A stretch of 64,000 nucleotides of DNA from Candidatus Nanohalarchaeota archaeon (GCA_022729235.1 JALDAJ010000001.1:96001-160000), one strand, 5' to 3'. Shown: positions 41,413-64,000, counted from the stretch's first letter. Notes: generated from the letters alone by a model not told the origin. Numbers and translations: made by a program.

Positions 41413-41448
41413 TAGATGGGCTTTGGACTCGATTGTTTAAAACATTGA

Positions 41449-44400
41449 TCAGCCGACAGCCGCGCCGCCCTGGTTCATAACCTGCTTCACCTGCTTCTCT
41501 GAAAGAGCATAAGGATAGATACGGACATCATCTATCTTCCCACCAAAAGGCCTGGTACCCTCATCATCCTGTATACCAAATAGAGGTCCTCCCCCCGCAC
41601 CGAAGTCAATAGAGCTGATATCAGCATCTTCTCTTGTAACGACAGGTTCTCCATCCAGATAAACCGTCAAATCTGTACCATCAAAGCTGTAAACGTAGTG
41701 ATGCCACTGGTCGAAGCTCCATCCTACGGTCTCACCATCCTGTGAACCATCGACTGATACATACGCTCTTCCCTCCGAACTACCATCCACTAGCATCCTT
41801 ACGTTCTCCGAGCCGGTATTTCCACTGGACACTATACTACCCCATCCACTAGGATGAAGATCCGAATCAGCATAGAACCAAGTACTTAAGGCGAACTCAT
41901 AGTCCGGAATCTGTTCACCAGCTACATGAACACTATCTCCTTCTCCATCGAACTCCAGTGCAGCGCCGCGTTTGTCATCCATAATGAACTCCGCATCGTA
42001 ATTAGTTCCATGATTATCTTCACCGGACGTATCAAAAACAGGACTTGAAAAACTTAAGCTGTCGAACCATTCATAAACATGTCCATCGTTGTAACCCACT
42101 GAGCTGCATCCCGCATCACAGTTCTGAACTCTTATCCTTTCAATATTTGTATCATGCCGTAAAGTTCTCGTTCCTGTATGCGTGCTGTCTCCGTCCGCTG
42201 TTTCAAAGACGTAATCGTAAGTACCTTCCTCCCAGTTGAACTCCACATAGTATCTCGTCCAAGTGTCGTAATATCCTCCATAAAGTCTTTCACAAGTTTC
42301 TGGCGATTCGTCATCGAATACGCACCACTGCGGGTTATCATTATTGAGACCTAAAATCTCATTACCATAGCTATCATATAGGGCGATACCCGCACCTCTG
42401 CTTGAACTATCCGCCTGCCAGTAATACTCAAAGCTTTCTGGTCTTACACCACCTTCAAATCCTTCAGGAGTCTTGGACGCGAGAGCTATCGTACCGTCCT
42501 CAGGTAACTCGTCATCCATCCCGTATCCATCATCTTCCTCGGAAAATGTCTCAGTCATACCTGCCGAATAACCTTCAGCGTGCACCCGGTCAGTACGAAT
42601 CTCAAAATCATCATTGTGAACCTCCCAACCCTCTAAATTACCGACTTCAAAGACCTCATTCCACCTAGGCTCAAACCGCCAGTGACCGGCAGGACCCGCG
42701 TCTTCAGTTGGACCGAGGTTGTCTCGTCCCTGAGAGTAGAGATGCCAGATCTCTTCCTCAGATAGGGAGCGGTCGTGGATGCGGAAATCATCTATTTTTT
42801 GAGGATACTGCCAGTCTCTACCGTCCATCCGCCCTATCCAGTTTGAATCAGAAGTGGTCGTAGCAGATGAAGGCGCTGAATCACAGCCTAATTCTCTACC
42901 ATCCACATGTATACACATCTCACTTCCTCCTTCAAGAGTAGCTACTACATGCCGCCATTCATCTACTCGAACGGTACCCCCTCTTATGTAGCTACCATCT
43001 ACTGTCCATGAGAATTGCTCTCCTTCAGACTGATGAGGTCTCAAATAGAAGCTGTAACCGTCATCATTCCAGGTTCCCTCAGTAGCGTCAAGTATCGCCA
43101 CAAAATCACTATCAAATTCCGGTTTCACCCAGAAGGAAAGACTTAACTCAGTCATCTCTGAATTAATAGAATCATCGTTTTCAATCTCAACATAGCCGCC
43201 AGAACTCCCATCTCCATCAAACTCCAGGCATCTCCCGCTGACGCATTCATTACCTGTTTTCTCAACCGGTCCGTTCACGAGTTCACCGTGGTTCTCGCCC
43301 CCACTTTCATCGACCGCTATATCTCCGGTCATCCTATGCAACGCTTGAACTTCCGCCGACGCGAGGGCGCGATCGTAGATACGGACTTCGTCCATTTTAC
43401 CATCGAACCGGCGTACATCACCATATTGACCGAACTCTAAATCACCACTCAAGTCTAATTCTGTATCCACATCGTCAAAATAAGCGATCTCATTACCATC
43501 TACGTAAATAGAAGCCTCGCCATTATCTATTACAGCGGAAATATGTTTCCATTGTCCTTCAAGAGCATCATGAGGATAGGGCCATTGATGATTGTCATCA
43601 CCTATTCTTAATCTATGGTTGTCCTCATCCTCTCTTAAGTAAAGTGTTACATATTCATCCCAAGTTCCCCAAGTTACCAAAGATTTGTGTTCTTCTGACA
43701 ATGTGTTTTCTGAGGCTTTAATCCATAACGAAATAGTTAACTCGTTTGTATCCGGATCCAAACTCCCTATATCTATATAGTTATCATCGCCATCAAAACG
43801 AAGAGCCTTACCTAATCTTCCATCGGTCCACTGCGCGTCATTCATTATGGTTCCGTCATAATCATTCAACGAGGTATCGTACGCCGTATCACCCGAGCCC
43901 TCCTCAAAAGCCCAGTATCCTACAAGAGATGTATCCGAACAGCTCATGGTATCCGGTCTACCGCATAGCTCGACACGGTCAAAGGACTGATGAAGCACTA
44001 GACTCTCGTCATCGGGTCTCTGCGGCGGTTTACTGTCGCTGCCGAAACGGGAGGCTCCCTGCGCGTACTTCTGTTTGACTTCGTTCTCAGAAAGGCTATA
44101 AGGGTAGATAATGATATCATCAAGTATTCCTGGAAACGTTTCATACCCGTGATATCTGCCTACATATAGGTTTTCGTAGACAAGGTCATAGGAATTAGAT
44201 CCTGAATTAACCTCTTCACCATTCTTATACCAGGTCCACGTATCATCAACCATTACAAAAGTCCAATGAGTAAACTCAGTAGTATCTACACTTTCAGAGC
44301 TGGTAAATGTCTCTTGACCGAAAACCCGGAACTGCATCTCGCCATCATTATTTCTTACGCTCCAAGTATCAGTCACTCCGCCTGTAGATGCTACTCCCTG

Positions 44401-54413: not shown

Positions 54414-54770
54414 TCAAGTCCCGGGAACTCCTATAGCCGTAAAGGCTGTGACTTCAAACAGGGCAAGTATGTAAAGGACTACAAGCACCGATACCCACGC
54501 GATCAGCCCTATACCGGCTGCTTCAGTCCATCCTCCAGGATACATCATATTGATTACAGCAATCCATGCCAGGAGCGCCAATAAAGGTCCTACAAGAGGT
54601 ATGACTCCGAGAAAAAAGCCTACAACCGCCCAGACAATAGCGCCTATCAACGCGGTCACAACTGCATCAGAGTACTCTGACTCCTCAACTATAGCCATGG
54701 CTCCCAGGTGAATACCGAGTGCGCCTATCGCCAGGCTTACGAGGAAAACAACTATAGAGGCTAGTACCAT
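54414..54770 (-). CDS. Small 4-TM membrane protein
   Basis: Almost entirely hydrophobic; YPGGW motif. Confidence 0.75.
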   Translation of the reverse strand: MVLASIVVFLVSLAIGALGIHLGAMAIVEESEYSDAVVTALIGAIVWAVVGFFLGVIPLVGPLLALLAWIAVINMMYPGGWTEAAGIGLIAWVSVLVVLYILALFEVTAFTAIGVPGT

Positions 54771-54898
54771 GTCCCAAACCGTCTTATCCAGTTTAAAATC
54801 GTTATGCTCACCGGAACAAATGTTTTCATCGACCTAAATCCATGGTAACCGCTAATTACACCCGATAACCATCGCAACCCGAGACCTAATACACCTCC

Positions 54899-55618
54899 TT
54901 ACTCCATCTCCTCTGTCTCTTCCCTGGCTCTCCGAGCCCATTCATCGATGTTATCATCCACGTAATCTCTCATACCCAGTCCGAAACCAAGACCTATGGC
55001 GAGCGCGATTCCGAGACCTAGCCCCAGCGCTGCAGCGCCGGCGAAGATATACAGGAACCCTACGTCGACACCCATCGTGTCGAGACCTATCGCGATAACC
55101 AGGAAGTAAAGGAATACACGGACACCGTCCGCGAACCAGCCGGTGTAGCGCATATGAGTAACTGCCCTGGTACGCTCTATCACATCTCCTAGAAAGTCGG
55201 CGAGTATGAACCCGATTATGATTATCAACAACCCGGCTATAAACGCAGGTAAATACGCGACAGCCATTGACATCCACTGTGAAAGCATCGGGATCGCAAG
55301 CACGTCGACCGCGGCGAAAATAGCAAGGATGTAGATGAACCATTTCACCAGTTTCCCGAAGAACAATGAGACCGCGTCCTCGGTCTCCCCTATCATCCTT
55401 CCTATGGGAGTACCCACTATCCTGGCATCAAGCTCTGTTCTCGCCAGTAGCCTCCTTACAAAGGACCCTACAAATATACCTACAGCCCATCCTATCAGGA
55501 GTATTACCAGTGCGGCAAAGATACGTGGAAAAACAACAATCAGAGACTGTAGCGGGTCCTGCATCCATGCAGGCATCTGGTTTATAAACTGTTCTTCCTG
55601 TACCTGTAAAGCAGTCAT
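54899..55618 (-). CDS. TM-helix-repeat (CmpX/MscS-associated) membrane protein
   Basis: Duplicated PRIFAALVILLIGW / PAFIAGLLIIIIG units; ALAIGLGFGLG. Confidence 0.8.
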   Translation of the reverse strand: MTALQVQEEQFINQMPAWMQDPLQSLIVVFPRIFAALVILLIGWAVGIFVGSFVRRLLARTELDARIVGTPIGRMIGETEDAVSLFFGKLVKWFIYILAIFAAVDVLAIPMLSQWMSMAVAYLPAFIAGLLIIIIGFILADFLGDVIERTRAVTHMRYTGWFADGVRVFLYFLVIAIGLDTMGVDVGFLYIFAGAAALGLGLGIALAIGLGFGLGMRDYVDDNIDEWARRAREETEEME

Positions 55619-55808
55619 AGATTACCACGGGACAGGGAACCCAGTTACGGCGATTTTTAAACCCATTACTTCACTCTCCCGCAATATTTCCGCTAGAAAA
55701 CCGGTTTGAAACTGTCAAACCTGCCTAAAACATCTTCTACAACCTCAAAACCACTGTAAATAACTACCCTAGTAATTTAACAGGAAGGTCAAAAATATCC
55801 AGTAAACC

Positions 55809-56273
55809 GTGAAAAAACACATCGCTCTACTTCTAACCCTGGCACTGCTATTCGCGGGCGTCGCTGCGTATCAAGCGGACCGAGATATGTCGCAGGCATC
55901 CAATATTTCTTCTTTCGAAGAGGAGACCATCAACATCTCCCACGTAAAAGATGAGATTCCCGGACCAGTAGAGCTTCTGATCCCCGGTCAGAGAATCAAC
56001 ACCAATATCGAAGGCGTGCACGAAAATGCCACAACCCAGTTTCCCCGGAATCTATCCGTAGAGGTAGACTCATCTCTTGAAGAGGTTACGGTAAGCAAAA
56101 ACCATACGGAAGACCCGACGCTTGAGATATGGTTGGATATCAGCGTTCTAGCAGAGGATCCGTCACAAAGCGGGATTGTAGACCACATAAAGGAAGGAAA
56201 TATAGAAATCAAAGCCCACGGATTACTGAACAACGCGCTGCTTTTCACCGCGGAGAGAACCTTCCTGAGGTAG
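55809..56273 (+). CDS. Hypothetical secreted protein (SCP2-like pattern)
   Basis: Signal peptide; DPTLEI...IKEGNIEIKAHG. Confidence 0.55.
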   Translation: MKKHIALLLTLALLFAGVAAYQADRDMSQASNISSFEEETINISHVKDEIPGPVELLIPGQRINTNIEGVHENATTQFPRNLSVEVDSSLEEVTVSKNHTEDPTLEIWLDISVLAEDPSQSGIVDHIKEGNIEIKAHGLLNNALLFTAERTFLR

Positions 56274-56326
56274 TCTATACGCATCTGATACAAACTAATT
56301 AATATCGAAAACCTATTTTACAGCTT

Positions 56327-56839
56327 ATGAGAGTCTTAAAAACCTCTATAATTGTTTTATCGCTAATCATAATCGCCTCAGGTTGTATAGACAGTAAAAA
56401 AATCGATCAACGCCCAGTAGAAGAGGTAATCGATGCTGACACAGTAAGAGTTAAAGACGCTCCAGGAACGGAGACCATCCGGATAATAGGTGCGGATGCA
56501 CCTGAAACCTTTGGTCAGAACCAGCCAGAGTTCTTCAACCTTGAAGATACAGAGGAAAACCGGCAGTGCCTGGATGAAAAAGCCAAAGAAGCCGATGACT
56601 ACGTTAGAGAGTTACTGGAAAACGAGACGGTCAGGCTGGAAACAGACCCGCTTGAAGGACCACGAGACCAGTACGACCGGAAACTGGCGTACGTCTTCAT
56701 CGACGGCAAAACCATTGGAGAAAAGTTAATGGAGAACGGCTACGCTACTGTTTTTCCCACAGACTTCAGGTACGAGAGGAAATACCAGGAGTTAGAGGTA
56801 GAAGCAAAGCACCACGAGATAGGGGTGTGGAGCTGTTAG
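56327..56839 (+). CDS. Thermonuclease (SNase-family) lipoprotein
   Basis: Lipobox IASGC; VIDADT, IRIIGADAPE, DQYDRKLAYV, L...GYA, GVW. Confidence 0.9.
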   Translation: MRVLKTSIIVLSLIIIASGCIDSKKIDQRPVEEVIDADTVRVKDAPGTETIRIIGADAPETFGQNQPEFFNLEDTEENRQCLDEKAKEADDYVRELLENETVRLETDPLEGPRDQYDRKLAYVFIDGKTIGEKLMENGYATVFPTDFRYERKYQELEVEAKHHEIGVWSC

Positions 56840-56849
56840 AAACGATGTA

Positions 56850-57194
56850 CTATAGTAAGTTAATCGTTATCGGATAGTCCCAGGCTTCTCCTTCAGAAGC
56901 CTTGACAGCAGCCACTATACAGAATATCAGGTCAAGTAGCCCCAGTATAACTACGAAGAGAAATCCTATCAGGACAACCATCAGTACAGCGGATATAACC
57001 ATATAGATGGAGAATGAAATCTGCCAGTTAAGCGCATTAGCCGCATTCTCCTTGACAAACTCGTCATCAGTGAAAACATAAACCAGAAGAGGACCCAAAA
57101 TCCAGGTAAAAAGAGCCAATATATGCGTTAGAGCCGCCAAACCCGCATCATTCTCGGTCTGACCTGAACTCTGCTCTCCGTTTTCCTCTTCCAT
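56850..57194 (-). CDS. DUF4870-like membrane protein
   Basis: AALTH...GPLLVY...FVKENA.NALNWQI...ASEGE.W.YP; ATG at 57194. Confidence 0.85.
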   Translation of the reverse strand: MEEENGEQSSGQTENDAGLAALTHILALFTWILGPLLVYVFTDDEFVKENAANALNWQISFSIYMVISAVLMVVLIGFLFVVILGLLDLIFCIVAAVKASEGEAWDYPITINLL

Positions 57195-57367
57195 AACTAA
57201 AACCTCTCCACCATATTTAATAGTCCTGCGATTCTTTGACAGCTTCTTAACCTGAATCAGTCCGAAATAGTTTCGTGGAGTAAAGACCTCTTGGTTGAGA
57301 GAGTCCTGAAAATTAGAGGCAAACACTTTATATCAGCTCATAAAAAACATCTCCAGGAGAGATAAAC

Positions 57368-59374
57368 ATGGACCTATTCTCGGCGATACTGCTGGCACAC
57401 TTCATGGGCTTCATCATGGGTGTCGGCGGCGCCACGGCGAGTGATGCACTGTTTTTCAAGACCATCAAGAACCGTCAGATAAGCCGGGACGAGTACAAAC
57501 TCCTGCACGAGGCTGGCAAAGTGGTTATGGGCGGACTGTCCCTGGCGATTATCTCGGGCATAGGTCTGCTACTTTACCAGTACTCCCAGATCGGTGAGAT
57601 AACTTACTGGGAGAACGCGTACTTCCAGGCAAAGCTTGTCCTCGTATCCCTGGTAGCTCTCAACGGTATCGCGTTCCACAGGAAAGTCTTGCCTTTCATG
57701 GAGAACCACCTTGGAGAAGACATGAGAGAGGAAGAGTTCAGCTCCCGTTTCTGGCTGTTCTCACTTACCGGCGCGGTTTCCATCACTTCCTGGTGGGGAG
57801 TGATATTCCTAGCAGTACTGGCTCCAACGCTACCGCTGCTGTACATCCTTAATATCTATCTACTCGTAATCGCGTCCGGCGCGCTGTTCGGCTACCTGAT
57901 GATGACACACGAGATATTTGCCGATAGGGAAATCCGAGAAGACTTCTCCGAAATCCCACATCGCTCCCTGGGAATCGCCGGCCTATTATTCGCAGGACTG
58001 GTTGTTCTGGGAGGAGCCTACCACGTAGCAAGTGCGGATGAGGCACACCATACTGTTTGTATAGTTGAAGATCCGCCATGGTTTGACTCGCCGGTTCTAG
58101 AAATAGAGCCGGGAGACACCGTTGAATGGGTTTACTGTGACGGCGACCACGGCATCCACACCCATCCTATCGAATCTATAAGCGGTCCTGAAGAGTTCAG
58201 CAGCGGTTTTGGTCTTGTTGGGAAAGGCGAGGAGCGTGATACCTTCCAGCATACCTTTGAAGAGGAAGGAGTCTACGAGTATATCTGTCCGACACACCCC
58301 TACATGATGGGTGTTATAGCTGTCGGCAGCGACTACCATGACGAGGTTGGAAAAGAAGATGTGTGGCCGAAAGAGTCGATGGTAGCGGAAGAAGAAATAC
58401 TTGACGAACCCGATGTTCCAGGAGTTGGAGAGATATGGGTGAACACGCAGTATGAGGACATCGATGGTCAGGAAAATCCTGGCTCGATAACTGTTATCGA
58501 TGCGGAGACCTGGGAAATAACGGATACTATCACCCACGAATCATTCAACAACCCTCACAACCTGTGGAACGAGTACGAGGAAGAGTACGTTTTCCAGACA
58601 CAGTGGCACTCAAACGTCATAAACAAGATAGATGTAGCGAATCGCGAAGTGATAGAGACTCAAGAAGTCGGAAATGCTCCCGCCCACCTGTTCGTACATC
58701 CTGAAGAGGACAGGCTTTACACCACGCTCAACAACGAGAACCGTGTGGTTGTTACAGACCTTGACCTGAACATACTCGGAGAGATAGACAGCAGTTTTGG
58801 AGCACACGGCATATGGATGGATCCCTCGGGCGAGCATATGAGCGTCGCCGCCACGCTCAACGAGAAACTTGACATAATAGACCTTGAAGAGGAAGAAGTG
58901 GTTGAAACATTTGACGCTCCAGGCTTCCCGCTCGCAACACAGGTAACACATGACGGACAGTACGCGATGATAAGCCTGCTTTTCGAAGGAAAGGTAAGAT
59001 TTGTAGACCTTGACACGATGGAAATCGAGAAAGACGTGGAGGTCGGCGAACTACCTATCTGGGCGATGCCTGGTCCGAAAGGCGATTACGTCTTCGTCCC
59101 TAACACAGGTACTGCAGACATCTCCGTGATAGACTTGGAAACATTGGAAGTCGTGGAGACCCTTGACGCAGGCGCAGGCGCTCACGGAATCAGCTTCGGC
59201 GAGAAACAGGGAGGTGGCTATTACGGATACACCAGCAACAAGTATGAACACGTTGTAACAGTTATAGACTACGAGAACATGGAGACACTGGGTCACATAG
59301 ATATTGAAGAGGAAAAAATCGGCGGAAACGGCATATTGACGATTCCTAACCCTTACACGGAGATGGTAGAATGA
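57368..59374 (+). CDS. Fusion of a multi-TM domain, a type-1 cupredoxin and a YVTN/YncE-type beta-propeller
   Basis: About 6 TM helices; LEIEPGDTVEW...H...YEYICPTHPYMMG; propeller blades NPHN, APAH, GAHG. Confidence 0.8.
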   Translation: MDLFSAILLAHFMGFIMGVGGATASDALFFKTIKNRQISRDEYKLLHEAGKVVMGGLSLAIISGIGLLLYQYSQIGEITYWENAYFQAKLVLVSLVALNGIAFHRKVLPFMENHLGEDMREEEFSSRFWLFSLTGAVSITSWWGVIFLAVLAPTLPLLYILNIYLLVIASGALFGYLMMTHEIFADREIREDFSEIPHRSLGIAGLLFAGLVVLGGAYHVASADEAHHTVCIVEDPPWFDSPVLEIEPGDTVEWVYCDGDHGIHTHPIESISGPEEFSSGFGLVGKGEERDTFQHTFEEEGVYEYICPTHPYMMGVIAVGSDYHDEVGKEDVWPKESMVAEEEILDEPDVPGVGEIWVNTQYEDIDGQENPGSITVIDAETWEITDTITHESFNNPHNLWNEYEEEYVFQTQWHSNVINKIDVANREVIETQEVGNAPAHLFVHPEEDRLYTTLNNENRVVVTDLDLNILGEIDSSFGAHGIWMDPSGEHMSVAATLNEKLDIIDLEEEEVVETFDAPGFPLATQVTHDGQYAMISLLFEGKVRFVDLDTMEIEKDVEVGELPIWAMPGPKGDYVFVPNTGTADISVIDLETLEVVETLDAGAGAHGISFGEKQGGGYYGYTSNKYEHVVTVIDYENMETLGHIDIEEEKIGGNGILTIPNPYTEMVE

Positions 59375-59808
59375 GTGAAGAGCAGAGCTTTCCAGGACTG
59401 AGATTCCCGATTGCGATGCTGGCGGTCGCAGGTGTACTGGCAGCAACGCTGACAGTTCAAACAGTCTTCCTGATAGACTCAGGGGAGTTTCTTGCGGAAA
59501 CGGCAGCGGAGGAAACAGACCTGAGTCCTGAAGACGCTGACGTGCATGTAGCAGTCGGAGACGGCTACTTCATCCAGGATGACAGCGACCTGCCGGACGA
59601 TGTTGTCGAGGCAGAGGTAGGAGACGTGATCTACTTCTACAACGAGGGAGACATCAGGCACACCGCCACAGTACCAGAATTCGGATTTGACAGAGAGCTT
59701 GATCCAGGAGAAGAAGCTTTCCTCGAGGTCGACGAGCCAGCAGAAGAAACAGTCCTGGACTGCACACTGCACGCGCACCACGAGGCAGTTCTGACAGTCA
59801 GGGAGTAA
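59371..59808 (+). CDS. Membrane-anchored cupredoxin
   Basis: TM helix; VGDVIYFYNEGDIRHT...DCTLHAHH; ATGA-coupled to the upstream gene. Confidence 0.75.
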   Translation: MSEEQSFPGLRFPIAMLAVAGVLAATLTVQTVFLIDSGEFLAETAAEETDLSPEDADVHVAVGDGYFIQDDSDLPDDVVEAEVGDVIYFYNEGDIRHTATVPEFGFDRELDPGEEAFLEVDEPAEETVLDCTLHAHHEAVLTVRE

Positions 59809-59818
59809 GTAGAGAAAA

Positions 59819-59867
59819 TGGCAGGAACCCTGATTCGAAACTCGAAGATTCTCTAGGATCTGAACCG
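59819..59867 (-). repeat. Degenerate tRNA-Pro 3' remnant with a short insertion
   Basis: tggcaggaaccctgattcgaaa...ggatctgaaccg compared with the tRNA's tggcagggcccggatttgaaccg. Confidence 0.65.
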
Positions 59868-59921
59868 AAATTACAGAGGGGTGCGGGAAAAGATAAAAAT
59901 ATTCAATACACACATCTGTGT

Positions 59922-60134
59922 ATGTCAACAAAAACAGTTTCACTCAGAGAAAGTGCTTACGAAAAATTGAGGAATTTGAAAAGAGAGAACGAAAGTTTCT
60001 CTGATGTAGTTGAAAGAATCTCGGAGGAACAAGAGCAGAACTTAGAAAAATTCAGCGGCTCATTCCCAGAAATCGGAGAGGTCGAAGAACAGTTGAAAAA
60101 AGAAAGGGAAGAGTTTGAAATGAGGAAGGATTAA
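59922..60134 (+). CDS. vapB: VapB-type antitoxin (DUF217-like)
   Basis: KTVSLRESAYEKL..LK...ESFSDVVER. Confidence 0.88.
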   Translation: MSTKTVSLRESAYEKLRNLKRENESFSDVVERISEEQEQNLEKFSGSFPEIGEVEEQLKKEREEFEMRKD

Positions 60135-60136
60135 AC

Positions 60137-60508
60137 TTGAAACTATTAGATACCTCTGTGATAATAGGACTTCTGCGAGGAGAAGAGAAGATAGAAGAAC
60201 TAGTGGCAGCTGAAGAAGAAACTTTATGTAGCTGCTTTCCTGTCCAGTGTGAGCTGTATCGGGGAACCAGAATAGCTAGAAGAACTGAAGACGGAGAGAA
60301 AGAAGTTGAATCGCTGCTGGATGAGCTTGAAAATCTAGAAACAGACAGAGAATCAGCGAAAAAAGTAGCGGAGCTCATAGAAAAATATTCGGAGATAAAC
60401 ATTTTTGATCTGATGATCGCAGGAAGTTGTTTGGCAAATGATGCCAAAATAATTACAAAAGACCGAGACTTCGAAAAGATAGAGGAGTTAGATGCTCAAA
60501 TAGTTTAG
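60137..60508 (+). CDS. vapC: VapC PIN-domain toxin
   Basis: LLDTSVII, EL..G, FDLMIAG, IITKDRDF. Confidence 0.9.
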   Translation: MKLLDTSVIIGLLRGEEKIEELVAAEEETLCSCFPVQCELYRGTRIARRTEDGEKEVESLLDELENLETDRESAKKVAELIEKYSEINIFDLMIAGSCLANDAKIITKDRDFEKIEELDAQIV

Positions 60509-60520
60509 CTCAGAAAGATG

Positions 60521-60545
60521 ATGGCAGAGCCCGGATTTGAACTGG
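60521..60545 (-). repeat. tRNA-Pro 3' remnant (23/25 identical)
   Basis: atggcagagcccggatttgaactgg compared with atggcagggcccggatttgaaccgg (63626-63650). Confidence 0.85.
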
Positions 60546-60674
60546 CAAGGGAAATCTATAATCATTCAATCTAGCGCGGAATAAAACAGAAGAAAACAAA
60601 TCGAAGTCTAAAAACCCTCCTTTCTCCATATTTAACAAACATTTAAAGAAATATAGTTTCTTAACAAATTTCAA

Positions 60675-61376
60675 ATGAGCCTCAAGGACCTGCTTGAGCG
60701 CATACTACCGGTAGAGCTAGAATTACTTTCCGAGACAGCTTTATTTCTGACTTATACCATATTGGTTTTTTCTCTGGTTCAACGCCTATTAGTTGTTATT
60801 TTCGGTCCTGAAACCTTAGGATTAACCCCGCAGTCACTTATAATCATCGAGACCATCATCGTCCTAGGATCACTCGGACCATTTATTCCGTTGGAAGGTA
60901 TCTTCTTGGCAGCATCAATAGTTTTACTCGCTGTTTCAGCTCTATTTGTCTATTTCATAGATTCCAGAGAGTTACGTTTCGTGGAGAAAATAAAGAGACT
61001 TAGATTTTTGGGCGCCTACCTGTCTTTGTATACTGGTCTATGGATATACACTACTCTTTACGATTTAACAGTGTCTCGTTTTGGCAGTACTATCGATGCA
61101 GATGTCGTAGTAACCCTGTTTGAATTTAATCTCCTCTCAGTCATGTTAACTCTTCTAGGGCTTTCGATCGCTCTACTCTTTCTTAGCCCTATCCTAGTAT
61201 CAGATAAGTCGAGAATAGTGAAGATGATTTCCGCGCGAGCTTATATCTTCGCGATCTCAGTTGTAAGCAGTATTATAGGGTTCGGAGAATTTGGTGCGTT
61301 GATTCTTATCCCATTAATATCAGTACTTATGATAATAGAGTTCATCATATCACTTCTTAGAATCCGACTGAAGTAA
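60675..61376 (+). CDS. Orphan polytopic membrane protein
   Basis: About 7 hydrophobic helices; AT-rich DNA. Confidence 0.65.
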   Translation: MSLKDLLERILPVELELLSETALFLTYTILVFSLVQRLLVVIFGPETLGLTPQSLIIIETIIVLGSLGPFIPLEGIFLAASIVLLAVSALFVYFIDSRELRFVEKIKRLRFLGAYLSLYTGLWIYTTLYDLTVSRFGSTIDADVVVTLFEFNLLSVMLTLLGLSIALLFLSPILVSDKSRIVKMISARAYIFAISVVSSIIGFGEFGALILIPLISVLMIIEFIISLLRIRLK

Positions 61377-61487
61377 ATAACACTGTACTTGAACCGATTT
61401 ACCTGTAAAAAAGCGATAGAGCATGGTTTCACCGACCGTTAGATTTATTACTATAGTAGCACCATAGAATACTTAGGTGAAACATGC

Positions 61488-61721
61488 ATGGCTTCAGTAT
61501 CCGTCAAACTGCCAGACAAATTGAAGAAGCAGATAGAGGACAGAACAGAAGAAGAAGGCTACATGAACAGTTCCGAGTATATTCGACAGGCTGTGCGAGA
61601 GAAAATTAAAGAGGAGACTCAACTTTATCCTGACGAACTCAGAAGGCTGATTAAGCAGGGAGAGAACCCAGAAAAAGGAGAGAACCACAGCCTGGAAGAA
61701 GTAAAAGAAGAGTTCCGATAG
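61488..61721 (+). CDS. Ribbon-helix-helix (CopG-like) antitoxin
   Basis: VSVKLPDKL...GY.NSSEYIRQAVRE...SLEEVK. Confidence 0.85.
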   Translation: MASVSVKLPDKLKKQIEDRTEEEGYMNSSEYIRQAVREKIKEETQLYPDELRRLIKQGENPEKGENHSLEEVKEEFR

Positions 61722-61724
61722 AAA

Positions 61725-62030
61725 ATGGAAGTTATTTTAAAGGAAGAAGCTCGCCAAGACTTGGCCGAGCTAGATGAAGAAATCAGAAATAGAATTCTAG
61801 ACGAGATAGGGAAACTAGAGAAAAACGCAACGCCCGACAAGTCAACATTCATAGAAATCGGCGATATGGAACTTTTCCGGCTTAAGTTACAGAAGAGAGA
61901 CAGAAACTCCCCGCTCAATCACCGCATATTCTACCAGATTGAAGACAAAAAAGTCTACATTAGAGGAATTTTCCACCGACAGAAAGGATACGGGACAGAA
62001 ACTGAAGAAGAATTAGAAGAAAGGATTTGA
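61725..62030 (+). CDS. RelE/ParE-family toxin
   Basis: ARQDLAELDEEIRNRI..., FRLK...HRIFY.I....VYI..IFHR...Y. Confidence 0.82.
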   Translation: MEVILKEEARQDLAELDEEIRNRILDEIGKLEKNATPDKSTFIEIGDMELFRLKLQKRDRNSPLNHRIFYQIEDKKVYIRGIFHRQKGYGTETEEELEERI

Positions 62031-62109
62031 ACCGAGTCATAGACAAACAAGATTGGAGTAATTTGGATTTCGCTATATTCTTTAATAATTTTAGTTAATA
62101 TGATAGGTC

Positions 62110-62643
62110 ATGATATTTAGATTAAAATCAAATTATGAAGGGCAAGACGTTGTTCTATTAGAAGATATTCATCCTAACTATGGGGAAACTGCAGTCTCTT
62201 CATTCAAGATAAGCGAGACTAGAAGAGCAAGAGAACTTCAAGCAGAGGCTGTGGAATATCTACAGCCGGATATTGTTTTGCATGAAGGCCTTCGTCACGA
62301 GGAAAGCGTGGCTCCTGTTAGAGAAGCTGTTGAGAATCTGAATGGCGATAAGGATTGTCAGCTCTTAATGTGGGGTACAGATTATGAGGAACTTGAAAAA
62401 TCCAAGTTGAGCCAATACATGGAAGATGCGAAAGGAAGAGAATTAGATGACAAAGGATGTTTTCAATATTCTCTACTTGATTTTGAAAGAGATGCAGCGA
62501 GACTAGAAATGATTGATGGAATACTCTCAGAATCTCCTGATACGCCAGTAGTGGCTGCTGCCGGAAATGCCCACATACATACTCTTGAGTACGGAATCTC
62601 TATGGAGGGCTATACAGTTTACAAACAGATGCTCGATGTATAG
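62110..62643 (+). CDS. Hypothetical acidic protein, weakly TraB/ChaN-like
   Basis: LLEDIH, PDIVLHEG, ERD, VVAAAGNAH. Confidence 0.55.
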   Translation: MIFRLKSNYEGQDVVLLEDIHPNYGETAVSSFKISETRRARELQAEAVEYLQPDIVLHEGLRHEESVAPVREAVENLNGDKDCQLLMWGTDYEELEKSKLSQYMEDAKGRELDDKGCFQYSLLDFERDAARLEMIDGILSESPDTPVVAAAGNAHIHTLEYGISMEGYTVYKQMLDV

Positions 62644-62729
62644 TGAAGGACTTTTGGAAATAGAACCTTTTGAAATCAAAGAAAACCGTTGGCAGTTCCA
62701 CATTTCTATTAAATCTGGGTAAAAGCAAT

Positions 62730-62836
62730 TGGCAGGACCCGGATTCGAAACCCGTAGGGTTTCTGCATCCTCAGAAAATCGCGCGGATTTTCGATGGACT
62801 TGAACCGGGGTCCAGGCGTCCCAAACGCCCGATGAT
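62730..62836 (-). pseudogene. Partial tRNA-Pro copy interrupted in the T-arm by a double-hairpin insertion
   Basis: 62800-62836 is identical (37 bp) to 63642-63678; 62730-62745 matches the 3' end; the 5' end and most of the D arm are missing. Confidence 0.85.
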
Positions 62837-62884
62837 TATCAGAAGGAGAAATTCATAAAATCCTTGAGGGCTAAACAGGTACAT

Positions 62885-63211
62885 ATGAGCGATTACAAAC
62901 ATCAAGAAATTTTAGAAGATTTTACGGAGAAAGTTAACAAGAACCTAAATGGTAGAGTAGAGGAAGTCATACTCTTCGGTTCATACGCCCGAAACGAACA
63001 ACTACCAGGAAGCGATGTGGACTTGTTAATAGTTCTCAGCGATATCAAGAAGAATGATCAGTCAAAGATTTCTCAGATAGCTGGCAACTACTTCTTAGAA
63101 GATCAACTAGTTCTCTCGCCTAAAATCATTACCTCAGATGACTTGGCAGAGAAGTCAGACTACAGCTTCTTTCAGGAAATACAGGAAGAAGGTGTACAGA
63201 TATATGGATGA
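62885..63211 (+). CDS. Minimal nucleotidyltransferase (MNT antitoxin)
   Basis: VILFGSYAR......SDVDLLIV. Confidence 0.9.
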   Translation: MSDYKHQEILEDFTEKVNKNLNGRVEEVILFGSYARNEQLPGSDVDLLIVLSDIKKNDQSKISQIAGNYFLEDQLVLSPKIITSDDLAEKSDYSFFQEIQEEGVQIYG

Positions 63212-63575
63212 AGAACAAAAAGAACTCTTGAAAGCAGCAAAAAAGAAGCTATCCGTCGCAGAAAAACTATTGAAGGAAGAAGAACTGGCAGACTCTGTCT
63301 CACGAGCATATTATGGAATGTTCCACGCAGCACGCGCATTACTTCTAGAGAAGGATTCTAACCCAAAAACACACCAAGGAGTGATATCAGAACTTGGAAA
63401 ACTATTCCGAAACCAAATAGATCCTGAACTAATATCACAAATGTCCCAAATACAATCTCTTAGAGAAGACGCAGACTACGAACCCTATTTCACAATACAG
63501 AGAGAAAGAGCAGAAGAAGTCATAGAATACTCATCCACCTTCATTGAACAAGTAGAAAACCAAATAGAAGAATAA
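63204..63575 (+). CDS. HEPN-domain protein (MNT partner)
   Basis: SRAYYGMFHAARALL, KTHQGV, REDADY (Rx4Y). Confidence 0.9.
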   Translation: MDEEQKELLKAAKKKLSVAEKLLKEEELADSVSRAYYGMFHAARALLLEKDSNPKTHQGVISELGKLFRNQIDPELISQMSQIQSLREDADYEPYFTIQRERAEEVIEYSSTFIEQVENQIEE

Positions 63576-63626
63576 CTAAGAACTCAAAATTGAATATTCG
63601 CTGATTCTACCTCTAAGACAAAAATA

Positions 63627-63699
63627 TGGCAGGGCCCGGATTTGAACCGGGGTCCAGGCGTCCCAAACGCCCGATGATAGTCCACTACACCACCCCGCC
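63627..63699 (-). tRNA. tRNA-Pro (TGG)
   Basis: GGCGGGG TG GTGTAGTGGACTATCAT C GGGCG TTTGGGA CGCCT GGAC CCCGG TTCAAAT CCGGG CCCTGCC A folds as a cloverleaf. Confidence 0.95.
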
Positions 63700-63772
63700 G
63701 CTACACTCTGGGATGGTTCGAAAACCGTTAAAACGATTTTCTTATCCTCCGAATCCTAGACAGATTCATCGG

Positions 63773-63793
63773 TACACCACCCTCGCCGCTACA
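63773..63793 (-). repeat. Duplicated tRNA-Pro 5' end plus leader
   Basis: tacaccaccctcgccgctaca compared with 63686-63705 tacaccaccccgccgctaca. Confidence 0.75.
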
Positions 63794-64000
63794 AAAGGTC
63801 TATTGGAAGGGTTAACTCATAATGTTTTAAACTTGAACTACACGAAATCATGTTTACGTATTACAAAATTAGCACATAAGCCAATATTAACGTATTTTGT
63901 ATTACAATATTCTATGCTGGTGTAGATTCTTAAGGTTTGGAATCCTGGGAAAACATATGTACTCGGAGGAAATCCAGCAAGAACTGGAGGACAAAGATAT

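Follow-up and report, generated by a model that had tools for sequence, protein, structure and literature searches.

The window, a 64,000-nucleotide stretch of the genome of a tiny salt-lake archaeon (Candidatus Nanohalarchaeota; 1.03 Mb of genome searched), contains a 3.8 kb low-GC island (59819-63626) that lies 3′ of an intact tRNA-Pro(TGG) gene and comprises five units whose cargo consists mostly of toxin-antitoxin (TA) pairs. ARAGORN and Rfam both identified a single intact tRNA-Pro(TGG) at the island. All island genes are on the + strand, antisense to this tRNA, and the units are separated by copies of the tRNA-Pro T-loop/acceptor end on the same strand as the tRNA. The composition of the island is foreign, given that its GC content is 0.37-0.43 (about 0.40), compared to 0.48-0.56 (about 0.50) in the left flank. 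ARAGORN, Rfam, Pfam and the gene frames bear out a preliminary description of this DNA that had placed five small co-oriented units 3′ of the tRNA; the features are the following.

59819-59867, - strand: outermost composite remnant, with a T-loop copy, a short hairpin and a degenerate 3′ end (repeat search and homologous position in relatives)
59868-60520, + strand: cassette 1, VapBC (Pfam; 70-78% DNA homologues in G052, G021, G010 and G044)
59922-60134, + strand: VapB antitoxin, PF02697 (Pfam, 2.8e-15)
60137-60508, + strand: VapC/PIN toxin, PF01850 (Pfam, 9e-21; NCBIfam VapC match below its cut-off)
60521-60545, - strand: tRNA 3′-end copy (23/25; blastn-short 60522-60542, 20/21, E = 1e-3)
60675-61376, + strand: cassette 2, 233-aa multi-pass membrane protein without known family
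61387-61396, - strand: degenerate T-loop core (9/10, weak alone)
61397-62022, + strand: cassette 3, RHH antitoxin and ParE/RelE toxin (Pfam; 72-85% DNA homologues over ~600 nt in 7 genomes)
61488-61721, + strand: RHH antitoxin, PF01402 (Pfam, 3.2e-8)
61725-62030, + strand: ParE/RelE toxin, PF05016 (Pfam, 1.7e-7)
62023-62034, - strand: T-loop core copy (12/12; E = 4.2 genome-wide, weak alone)
62110-62643, + strand: cassette 4, 177-aa protein, function not assigned (81% DNA homologue in G064)
62685-62729, - strand: ‘type A’ flank, the sequence directly 3′ of live tRNA-Pro(TGG) in six relatives
62730-62749, - strand: tRNA 3′-end copy, T-loop to discriminator (18/20, blastn-short E = 0.29)
62750-62795, - strand: two-hairpin module between two T-loop copies (homologous modules, 79-90% DNA matches)
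62796-62836, - strand: partial tRNA-Pro copy, tRNA positions 22-62 (40/41, blastn-short E = 4e-15)
62837-63626, + strand: cassette 5, MNT nucleotidyltransferase and HEPN (Pfam)
62864 (or 62885)-63211, + strand: MNT, PF01909 (Pfam, 5.4e-13; PADLOC PDC-S09)
63138/63204-63575, + strand: HEPN, PF05168 (Pfam, 7.3e-20)
63627-63699, - strand: intact tRNA-Pro(TGG), the array anchor, its 3′ end facing the island (ARAGORN; Rfam RF00005, 50.8 bits)

The VapBC, RHH-ParE/RelE and MNT-HEPN pairs are predicted TA cargo: they resemble known type II and type VII modules in matching the respective families above the curated Pfam cut-offs, whereas their NCBIfam matches fall below the curated cut-offs. VapB lies directly upstream of the PIN-domain gene (2 nt apart), the layout of type II VapBC modules, and the RHH gene lies directly upstream of the ParE/RelE-fold gene (3 nt apart), a ParDE/RelBE-like type II layout; the toxin stop codon falls within the T-loop core copy at 62023-62034. 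Type VII MNT-HEPN modules are marked by a nucleotidyltransferase gene that overlaps the HEPN gene and by an Rx4-6H motif in HEPN. In cassette 5, the HEPN start (63204) overlaps the MNT stop and both domains are present; the MntA equivalog score is 27.6 bits vs. a cut-off of 60 (NCBIfam). Neither the 233-aa membrane protein of cassette 2 nor the 177-aa protein of cassette 4 had a Pfam or NCBIfam match; for the latter, a weak Atlas lead points to the TraB/PrgY/GumN family (0.81). Each of the five units carries 60-130 nt of its own upstream DNA, and all are co-oriented within the window.

The preliminary description had also claimed tRNA remnants at the unit boundaries. Searching the whole genome with tRNA-Pro (blastn-short) upheld this claim for the 41-nt and 21-nt matches (E = 4e-15 and 1e-3), whereas the remnants at 61387-61396 (about 0.1 same-strand chance matches estimated in 4 kb) and 62023-62034 are not significant alone and are supported by positional homology in other genomes. 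The former sits where the copy of cassette 3 in G011 has a longer remnant with a junction motif; the latter comes after a junction motif that has homologues at junctions of G052 and G064, and in G051 and G017, too, the end of RelE adjoins such a core. The outermost remnant begins 11 nt past the stop codon of the flanking cupredoxin-like gene and coincides in position with the remnant at the distal end of the VapBC cassette in G021 and G044. Homologues of the two-hairpin module occur in G007, G001 and G008, and 3′ of tRNA-Gly(GCC) in the genome of the window. The type A flank is found directly 3′ of live tRNA-Pro(TGG) in G001, G005, G046, G052, G061 and G064, and in the last of these the tRNA, flank and homologue are collinear with the 3′ end, type A flank and 177-aa gene of the island. 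The fold of the junction at 60515-60590 was no better than those of shuffles, and the open frames across the remnants are mere translations of the tRNA antisense strand.

As a compartment control, we searched for the 17-nt 3′ ends of all 35 ARAGORN tRNAs (up to 3 mismatches, within 8 kb). On the same strand, 16 matches lay downstream and 1 upstream; on the opposite strand, 0 lay downstream and 1 upstream. Neighbouring tRNA genes account for one of the downstream matches and one of the upstream ones. Thus, tRNA 3′-end copies are strongly side- and strand-specific genome-wide. A 32-nt junction pattern had 17 matches, always with 12-nt spacing, in 12 of 49 family genomes, vs. 0 for the reversed-pattern controls and 0 in 20 genomes of other families of the same order. 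Eighteen junctions were aligned. In all 15 T-loop-type junctions (13 genomes), tRNA identity begins at the same 12-nt T-loop core. Over ~30-45 nt, a degenerate 3′-end copy is followed by a 19-nt trailer and finally by the core, and the bases immediately ahead of the latter are no more than loosely palindromic. The boundaries are not uniform, since some remnants start at the T-loop core and others (G002, G005, G021 and G044) only at the 3′ strand of the T-stem. The hand-compiled unit spacings are narrowly distributed, with 25 of 27 gene-sized spacings between 563 and 956 nt (median about 690). That the tRNA similarities reflect chance or the universal T-loop and the island is an ordinary TA gene cluster, as the two individually non-significant remnants among the five listed earlier might suggest, is hardly credible: remnants matching no better than chance, which the preliminary description had named as grounds for abandoning its reading, are contradicted by the compartment control, the BLAST E-values, the junction pattern and the positional homology of both weak remnants.

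The pattern is also present at other tRNA loci. At tRNA-Pro(GGG) in the same genome, the architecture is the same, with an RHH-ParE/RelE pair and two small membrane proteins between four remnants; the pair is a paralogue of cassette 3 (32% and 48% identity). A tRNA-Pro(TGG) match is present in 44 relatives; of the 20 downstream loci that we fetched from these, 8 have a same-strand remnant (that of G061 is weak, 12/12), 11 have none and 1 was too short; the sister genome of the same genus, G001, has four remnants at this tRNA. A fixed gene order in distant relatives, which would have spoken against the earlier reading, was not seen: gene order varies, the cargo differs from locus to locus (GNAT, HD-domain, NIF3, membrane proteins and hypotheticals), and cassette orientation differs in G046 and G063, so that co-orientation is not kept in relatives. 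As a separate observation, cargo-less units of 40-130 nt follow a quarter or more of the tRNA genes and share hairpin modules with tRNA introns of the family; at tRNA-Lys and tRNA-Phe, the duplicated segment includes ~12 nt of trailer.

Three of the five cassettes (VapBC, RHH-RelE and the 177-aa unit) have homologues with 70-85% DNA identity in other genera, whereas the DNA identity of the core gene gatD to 8 of the homologue-bearing genera is only 66-70%; in G014 and G020, cassette identity exceeds that of gatD by only about 3-5 points. The same-genus genome G001 had no match to the RelE of cassette 3. The 7 genomes with cassette 3 represent 7 genera, and the homology starts at the core and ends just before the next remnant. 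The copies in G051 and G053 have junctions on both sides and that in G011 is located 1.2 kb 3′ of tRNA-Pro(TGG); 4 of the 7 homologue loci (G017, G063, G014 and G020) are without a distal junction, and ARAGORN found no tRNA near 6 of the 7. Cassette 1 is bracketed by tRNA-Pro tails in two of its four genomes (G021 and G044), and the G064 homologue of cassette 4 begins 62 nt 3′ of tRNA-Pro(TGG) and is followed by a junction. Cassettes 1, 3 and 4 are found individually, with unchanged boundaries, in other genera and in other array contexts. No close DNA relatives of cassettes 2 and 5 were found in the family genomes, with no DNA relative at all for the membrane protein and only weak ones (65-74%) for cassette 5. 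On sequence grounds, it is apparently the units themselves, and not larger parent elements, that are common to several genera. Distant relatives carry the same cassettes at sites of this kind, which suggests that the cassettes travel as units although they encode no recombination enzyme themselves.

The units encode no recombinase, as had been claimed: Pfam, a six-frame PF00589 search and tblastn with five recombinase queries were all negative in the array, no recombinase was found in the arrays of 8 further loci, and no integrase fragment was detected in any array (six-frame PF00589 and tblastn). The tyrosine recombinases that the preliminary description had proposed to seek elsewhere in the genome are present at two loci only (841 and 862 kb), outside the array, and share only about 23-24% identity with the two recombinases located at tRNA-Pro in relatives. 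Among the family genomes, only 30 of 50 have a PF00589 match at E = 1e-5, and no conserved host Xer was found. G002 contains a roughly 20 kb integrase-bearing element at the same tRNA, and in G063 a recombinase lies about 0.5 kb beyond a junction. Circular junction reads, also proposed earlier as a check, were not seen, nor was an empty-site form, in the only run holding the locus, the probable source metagenome, in which contigs break at the 41-nt repeat. Exact-pattern scans of IMG/VR gave 0 matches, that is, no free element with such a site.

We favour the interpretation, with a probability of roughly 0.55, that small cassettes lacking a recombinase were inserted through recombination at the T-loop core and now form the island as a tandem array. 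Cassettes of 0.6-0.9 kb would have built up 3′ of tRNA-Pro(TGG), with recombination taking place at a short core that comprises the last bases of the 5′ T-stem strand and the T-loop and often reaches as far as the discriminator base. With each unit would come one or two genes, the upstream region belonging to them, and a junction of ~30-45 nt on the side far from the tRNA; each insertion would leave a tRNA-tail copy, thereby keeping the live tRNA intact and displacing older tails away from it. The TA pairs would be selfish cargo that probably makes the array hard to lose. We infer a site-specific reaction in which a tyrosine integrase acts in trans, provided by an element that is either resident or visiting, and an array stabilised by TA modules. 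Of the earlier reading of serial capture of minimal cassettes at the T-loop by a recombinase acting in trans, the capture part agrees with the shared 12-nt core, the separate occurrence of cassettes 1, 3 and 4 and the variable gene order, but no trans recombinase could be linked to the arrays. Repeated duplication and decay, the alternative considered in the same description, may account only for the short units without cargo and for the degenerate remnants of this genome.

The units could instead be what is left of larger integrative elements, as in ‘gene capture’ or CIMEs: ordinary plasmids or proviruses with an integrase would have integrated serially at tRNA-Pro and lost their integrase and backbone genes by deletion, with addictive TA pairs near the att sites being kept. 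The element in G002 and the recombinase in G063 fit this view, as do the long 41-nt tRNA copy bounding cassette 5, which is typical of a conventional attP, and the degenerate state of the remnants in this genome, from which it follows that the events are old; in the relevant passages of a review on recombinases of archaea (PMC8371274), integrase-less integrated elements are ascribed to gene loss, and tandem integration is described. We nevertheless consider such an origin unlikely: random deletion should not keep the same small units with the same ends in several genera, the arrays are free of detectable integrase fragments, unit sizes are narrow (0.56-0.96 kb), and no intermediate-sized decayed element was present among the loci examined. 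Also improbable, in our judgement, is a process without a dedicated recombinase, in which the ~30-45 nt repeats (tRNA tail and trailer) serve as portable homology, homologous recombination following DNA uptake or contact between cells adds, removes or exchanges cassettes, and unequal crossing-over yields tandem tails. Up to about 31-45 nt of near-identical sequence does lie on both sides of a cassette, the trailer included in the tRNA-Lys and tRNA-Phe duplications is what unequal exchange would give, remnant start points vary, and many family genomes are without a detected tyrosine recombinase; however, tRNA identity starts at one and the same base in 15 of 15 T-loop-type junctions, as would rather be expected of a fixed crossover point, some VapBC-type cassettes are flanked by repeats that share little beyond 12-23 nt, and integrase-bearing elements target the same site.

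A broader proposition, which we put forward tentatively, is that this small-genome halophilic family possesses an independent tRNA-based cassette platform, a functional analogue of the integron. The ~40 nt repeat (T-loop, acceptor tail and 19-nt trailer) could then be the recombination site of free 0.6-0.9 kb cassettes, an enzyme encoded elsewhere could capture and stack these cassettes and exchange them between genera, the spare tails could be safe landing sites, and the cargo-less units could be empty sites or scars. Under such a platform, tail copies 3′ of the tRNA would take the insertions and the tRNA itself would be spared.

IMEXs are recombinase-less elements that exploit host Xer recombinases at dif and occur in tandem at one chromosomal site. 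The units described here are likewise recombinase-less and arranged in tandem at one site, with the enzyme presumably encoded elsewhere, but their site is the tRNA T-loop/3′ end, not dif, and the family is without a detectable conserved Xer. Integrons contain arrays of small, mostly single-gene, recombinase-less cassettes with repeat ends, shared between hosts and frequently carrying TA cargo, all of which is paralleled here. In integrons, a gene for an IntI-type tyrosine recombinase is next to the array, the attC sites are imperfect palindromes with conserved R″/L″-L′/R′ boxes, and the cassettes are promoterless, co-oriented and expressed from a common Pc. In contrast, no IntI gene adjoins the array described here (NCBIfam integron-integrase models scored far below the cut-off at best), a live tRNA gene serves as the anchor, and the junctions consist of tRNA tail, trailer and T-loop core and lack the attC signature. 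The five units of the window are co-oriented, but each has upstream DNA of its own, and relatives do not keep to one orientation. The earlier label ‘integron-like’ therefore holds as an analogy only.

According to the passages of PMC5704250 devoted to them, CIMEs are att-flanked elements without integration genes, that is, decayed ICEs or IMEs of bacteria, several kb in size, which are mobilised in cis by a neighbouring ICE. As in CIMEs and the tandem accretion of integrative elements at tRNA genes in Streptococcus (ICESt1/ICESt3 and relatives), each unit here has tRNA-derived direct repeats on both sides, corresponding to attL/attR, and carries no integration genes of its own; the units are in tandem at a tRNA 3′ end, beside or replacing integrase-bearing elements. 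They differ in being only 0.6-0.9 kb long, in holding one or two genes, in having ends that are the same from one archaeal genus to another, and in that most arrays are without an integrase-bearing partner. That identical small units recur in several genera speaks against a CIME-type origin by decay. SSV-type integrase ‘gene capture’ (She et al. 2001, as cited in PMC8371274), which we compared alongside the ‘suicidal integrases’ of Thermococcales (as outlined in PMC7253208), likewise involves archaeal elements trapped in the chromosome, with tRNA genes as targets and tRNA-fragment direct repeats at the ends. As portrayed in those accounts, however, the elements are many kb long and have split integrase halves at their ends, whereas no N- or C-terminal integrase part was detected in the island by six-frame PF00589 search or tblastn. 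The best reading is that the array works like integron cassettes or CIMEs and belongs to neither class.

The source genome (a single contig of 1,027,595 bp, of which the window covers bases 96001-160000; 48% GC, estimated completeness 95%), in which most tRNA genes have long introns, encodes very acidic proteins in the window, and 3' of its tRNA-Pro(TGG) we identified eight plus-strand genes that make up five units. The introns and the acidic proteins, together with the soda-lake label of the one public run containing the locus, suggest a halophilic archaeon of DPANN type with a small genome, probably a nanohaloarchaeon.

Features of the island (59819-63626) and its anchor; units are referred to as cassettes 1 to 5
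63627-63699, minus strand: tRNA-Pro(TGG), intact and single, anchor of the array
plus strand: unit of VapB and PIN/VapC (cassette 1)
plus strand: unit of a 233-aa membrane protein without family match (cassette 2)
plus strand: unit of an RHH antitoxin and a ParE/RelE toxin (cassette 3)
plus strand: unit of a 177-aa protein without family match (cassette 4)
plus strand: unit of MNT and HEPN (cassette 5)

GC content is 37-43% in the island vs. 48-56% in the cupredoxin and beta-propeller genes on its left; the right side of the tRNA is occupied by core genes, namely gatD, gatE and the gene of a thermosome subunit. An Rfam search of positions 59000-64000 (E up to 10) returned nothing credible except the tRNA, PADLOC matched MNT alone to a candidate defence family, and an Atlas search with the 177-aa protein gave unnamed clusters at 0.91-0.92 and a TraB/PrgY/GumN lead at 0.81.

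BLAST of tRNA-Pro(TGG) against the whole source genome located four copies of its 3' end or T-loop (remnants) within the island; a fifth, weak match (61387-61396) is listed with them.

Remnants of tRNA-Pro(TGG) in the island
62796-62836, tRNA strand: remnant, 40/41 identical, tRNA positions 22-62, E 4e-15
60522-60542, tRNA strand: remnant, 20/21, E 1e-3
62730-62749, tRNA strand: remnant, 18/20, E 0.29
62023-62034, tRNA strand: remnant, 12/12, E 4.2, not significant alone
61387-61396: weak remnant, 9/10, not significant alone

Among the remnants claimed in the preliminary description, those at 60521-60545 (20/21 by BLAST) and 62730-62836 stood, the latter through the match at 62796-62836 and, more weakly, that at 62730-62749; the matches at 61387-61396 and 62023-62034 did not stand by themselves and gain support because of matching sites in other genomes. 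As a control, the 17-nt 3' ends of the 35 tRNAs called by ARAGORN in the source genome were searched for within 8 kb of each gene (≤3 mismatches). Downstream tail copies numbered 16 on the same strand and 0 on the opposite strand, and upstream copies 1 and 1, respectively (two of the control hits are neighbouring tRNA genes). This compartment control indicates that tRNA-tail copies are a real side- and strand-specific feature of the genome, and the pattern, for which a check of other tRNA loci had been proposed, recurs at a second locus: tRNA-Pro(GGG) (555625-555699) is followed by four remnants (+41, +102, +830 and +1786), among which lie two small membrane proteins and a second RHH-ParE/RelE pair (32% and 48% identity to the window pair).

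Across 13 genomes, 15 non-tRNA junctions share the base at which identity to the tRNA begins: the identical stretch opens with the final three bases of the T-stem's 5' strand and runs on into the T-loop. Upstream of this core, the acceptor tail in degenerate copy and a 19-nt trailer are present in most junctions; the trailer is also the sequence after the live tRNA in six genomes. A 32-nt junction pattern had 17 matches in 12 of the 49 family genomes, with a 12-nt spacing every time; the reversed pattern had 0 matches, and the pattern had 0 matches in 20 genomes from the order's other families. Hand-compiled core-to-core spacings are gene-sized in 27 cases, 25 of them between 563 and 956 nt and the other two 1444 and 1722 nt, and a separate class without cargo spans 26-133 nt. 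The six bases before the core tend towards complementarity with the end of the T-loop, and a palindrome at the core may be a lead, its 8+6+8 form, which is like a simple recombinase site, being perfect in only 2 of the 15 junctions. In four genomes (G002, G005, G021 and G044) some remnants start no earlier than the T-stem's 3' strand, so that crossover may be of more than one type or involve more than one enzyme. A junction scan of JGI metagenomes gave two contigs, one of which contains tRNA-Pro(TGG) with a junction ~0.6 kb downstream; exact-pattern scans of IMG/VR with the junction and with the tRNA tail gave 0 matches each and no free element with such a site.

tRNA-Pro(TGG) was matched in 45 of the 50 family genomes, the source genome included. 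Because only the same-genus genome G001 keeps tRNA-Pro beside gatD among the relatives compared, the relatives' loci were sought by the tRNA itself, and downstream DNA was compared for 20 of the 44 relatives with tRNA-Pro(TGG). Same-strand remnants were present in 8 of the 20 (G005, G007, G009, G012, G046, G052, G061, where they are weak, and G011, recognised later via its RelE cassette) and absent in 11; one locus was too short. G001, in which tRNA and gatD have stayed syntenic, contains four remnants, and its cargo is wholly different; G046 and G047 each have three consecutive single-gene units (0.67-0.86 kb). Cargo in relatives comprises a GNAT acetyltransferase, an HD-domain protein, a NIF3 homologue, membrane proteins and hypothetical proteins, and no recombinase. 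Many draft-genome contigs end at or within ~100 nt of tRNA-Pro(TGG), as a strain-variable site would give. The previously described array of tRNA-Pro-anchored cassettes without a recombinase is real and extends to the whole family.

Synteny with G001 (locus L008) also holds on the far side of the island, up to ~54413, and is regained at the tRNA. The intervening 5.4 kb (54414-59808), which are replaced in G001 and include a copper-binding/beta-propeller protein (57368-59374) and a cupredoxin-like protein (59371-59808) among others, yielded no tRNA remnants.

Whole-island BLAST against the 50 genomes recovered three of the five units, each by itself and in different genomes. Cassette 3 has 72-85% identity over ~600 nt in seven genomes (G053, G051, G017, G011, G063, G014 and G020), and its homology opens precisely with the 12-nt T-loop core, which overlaps the stop codon of RelE, and stops 20-40 nt short of the next remnant. 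The same junction flanks it on both sides in G051 and G053; in G011, where its orientation is the same, it sits 1.2 kb 3' of tRNA-Pro(TGG), and the junction that comes next contains a longer remnant at the position of the weak 61387-61396 match. Cassette 1 has 70-78% identity in G052, G021, G010 and G044, with tRNA-Pro tails on both sides in G021 and G044. By contrast with these values, gatD DNA is only 66-70% identical between the source genome and eight of these genera, and RelE had no match at all in the same-genus G001. Cassette 4 (81% identity in G064) is there preceded by the live tRNA-Pro(TGG) and a 45-nt flank, the same flank that follows the window remnant 62730-62749, and succeeded by a closing junction; this collinearity indicates that a later insertion of MNT-HEPN in the window lineage separated the tRNA body from its former tail. 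Against the sharing argument count the missing distal junction at 4 of the 7 RelE loci, the lack of an ARAGORN tRNA near 6 of the 7, and the absence of close DNA relatives of cassettes 2 and 5 in the 50 genomes. Comparison of cassette order and content, which the preliminary description suggested across strains, showed differing cargo and units shared singly among genomes, with 11 of the 20 loci devoid of remnants.

No recombinase is encoded in the island, where tblastn with five recombinase queries found none, and tblastn detected none in eight further array loci (~57 kb in total). Integrase-bearing elements do use the tRNA-Pro site, as two relatives indicate. In G002, a ~20 kb element lies directly 3' of tRNA-Pro(TGG), with a tyrosine recombinase of 473 aa at a distance of 64 nt from the tRNA. 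The element also has replication-type genes and, at its far end, a 12-nt tail copy; the flank after this copy also follows one remnant of G046. On contig C37 of G063 the order is tRNA-Pro, one cassette, a junction and a recombinase gene. The tyrosine recombinases sought elsewhere in the source genome amount to two PF00589 loci (841 and 862 kb), both with only 23-24% identity to these tRNA-Pro-site recombinases of G002 and G063, and only 30 of the 50 family genomes have any PF00589 match at E 1e-5. Spindle viruses of nanohaloarchaea that encode integrases have been described, in passages that do not mention att sites (10.1101/2025.02.15.638363).

Both recombinase loci of the source genome touch a low-GC stretch of ~26 kb (~836000-862000, 37-45% GC), which is probably one or two integrated elements: a 461-aa tyrosine recombinase (862442-863827) lies 78 nt 3' of tRNA-Thr(GGT) (863906-864053), and a second recombinase frame is at 840531-841662. 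A tail copy of tRNA-Thr was not found at the far end of the stretch. A 453-aa 'integrase' overlapping tRNA-Pro(CGG) in G009 was rejected, as its recombinase match is below cut-off, it has an 80% identical homologue elsewhere in the source genome, and the overlap is an ORF-calling artefact.

Several tRNA genes of the source genome (9 of 35, and several more by eye) have a same-strand copy of their own T-loop-to-discriminator sequence ≤150 nt 3'.

Examples of downstream units in the source genome
728069-728213: Lys
921855-921927: Trp
280944-281013: Phe
236020-236043: Leu-TAA
41325-41423: Gly-GCC
555500-555624: Pro-GGG

The 40-110 nt between the tRNA and the second tail are composed of words that recur across tRNAs and across genera: one or two hairpins, a further small hairpin in the trailer, and the T-loop plus 3' T-stem strand in inverted copy. 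Folding of these units is better than that of shuffled sequences (z -2.4 to -3.8); they could represent vacant cassette sites, scars or signals at the RNA level. Their hairpins and those of the two-hairpin module at 62750-62795 resemble canonical tRNA-intron hairpins of the family (G063:C37, locus L050, 2242-2376; tRNA-Lys, Leu(TAA) and Trp introns of the source genome), a likeness that suggests a common mobile or exchangeable module. In the stretch 822713-822790, 3' of tRNA-Gly(TCC), the tail copy matches the 3' end of tRNA-Gly(GCC) (41424-41492) and not that of the adjacent tRNA, which hints at exchange between the two loci, and the introns of tRNA-Cys(GCA) (259729-259878) and tRNA-Thr(GGT) (863906-864053) share 86% identity over 97 nt. 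At six loci from several genera (L031, L032, L041, L042, L045 and L048), tRNA-Pro(TGG), tRNA-Pro(CGG) and tRNA-Tyr are co-oriented within 3-7 kb; in the source genome ARAGORN gave no match for tRNA-Pro(CGG), and tRNA-Tyr is elsewhere.

The stretch was found in one public DNA run only, the probable source metagenome (labelled soda-lake), whose contigs break at the 41-nt repeat. The cassette 5 unitig (865 nt) has a depth of 13 vs. 15.1 in its neighbours, which is not counted as evidence, and one reported joint in this run was discarded because it came from another organism's contig.

We interpret the small units, with a probability of roughly 0.55, as mobile cassettes. Each would be inserted by site-specific recombination at the T-loop core, through an enzyme supplied in trans, and successive cassettes would stack behind tRNA-Pro(TGG), with the toxin-antitoxin pairs possibly acting as selfish cargo that resists loss and so stabilises the array. 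Observed directly are the anatomy and its statistics, the recurrence, the sharing of single cassettes whose ends are conserved, and the lack of a recombinase, from which the site-specific chemistry, the enzyme in trans and the stabilising role are inferred. Alternatively, the units might be stumps of larger integrative elements, loss being the standard view of archaeal integrated elements without an integrase in the relevant passages of PMC8371274 and decay that of bacterial CIMEs in those of PMC5704250; the finding is more cassette-like than ordinary island decay would predict, and we consider this origin unlikely. Exchange of the units by homologous recombination via the 30-45-nt repeats, in place of a dedicated site, appears similarly doubtful. 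Chance matches are scarcely credible for tail copies with the observed side and strand specificity.

Genomes of ~1 Mb in host-dependent archaea are thought to leave little room for accessory DNA. The finding points to compact site-specific uptake and exchange of single genes across genera, the exchanged genes being toxin-antitoxin and possibly defence genes, and we found no account of such arrays in the nanohaloarchaea literature. If the cassettes move as units, they would add to integrons a second cassette-capture system of independent origin, define a short (~40 nt) recombination site, and tie the architecture of tRNA genes, with its spare 3' ends and intron-like hairpins, to mobile-element pressure; if they are stumps, the locus would still be a clear archaeal case of tandem accretion with toxin-antitoxin-driven retention. 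With neither the IntI nor the attC that define an integron, and without the split integrase that defines SSV-type gene capture, the window locus belongs to neither system, but by analogy it may work in the manner of integron arrays or of CIMEs strung together.
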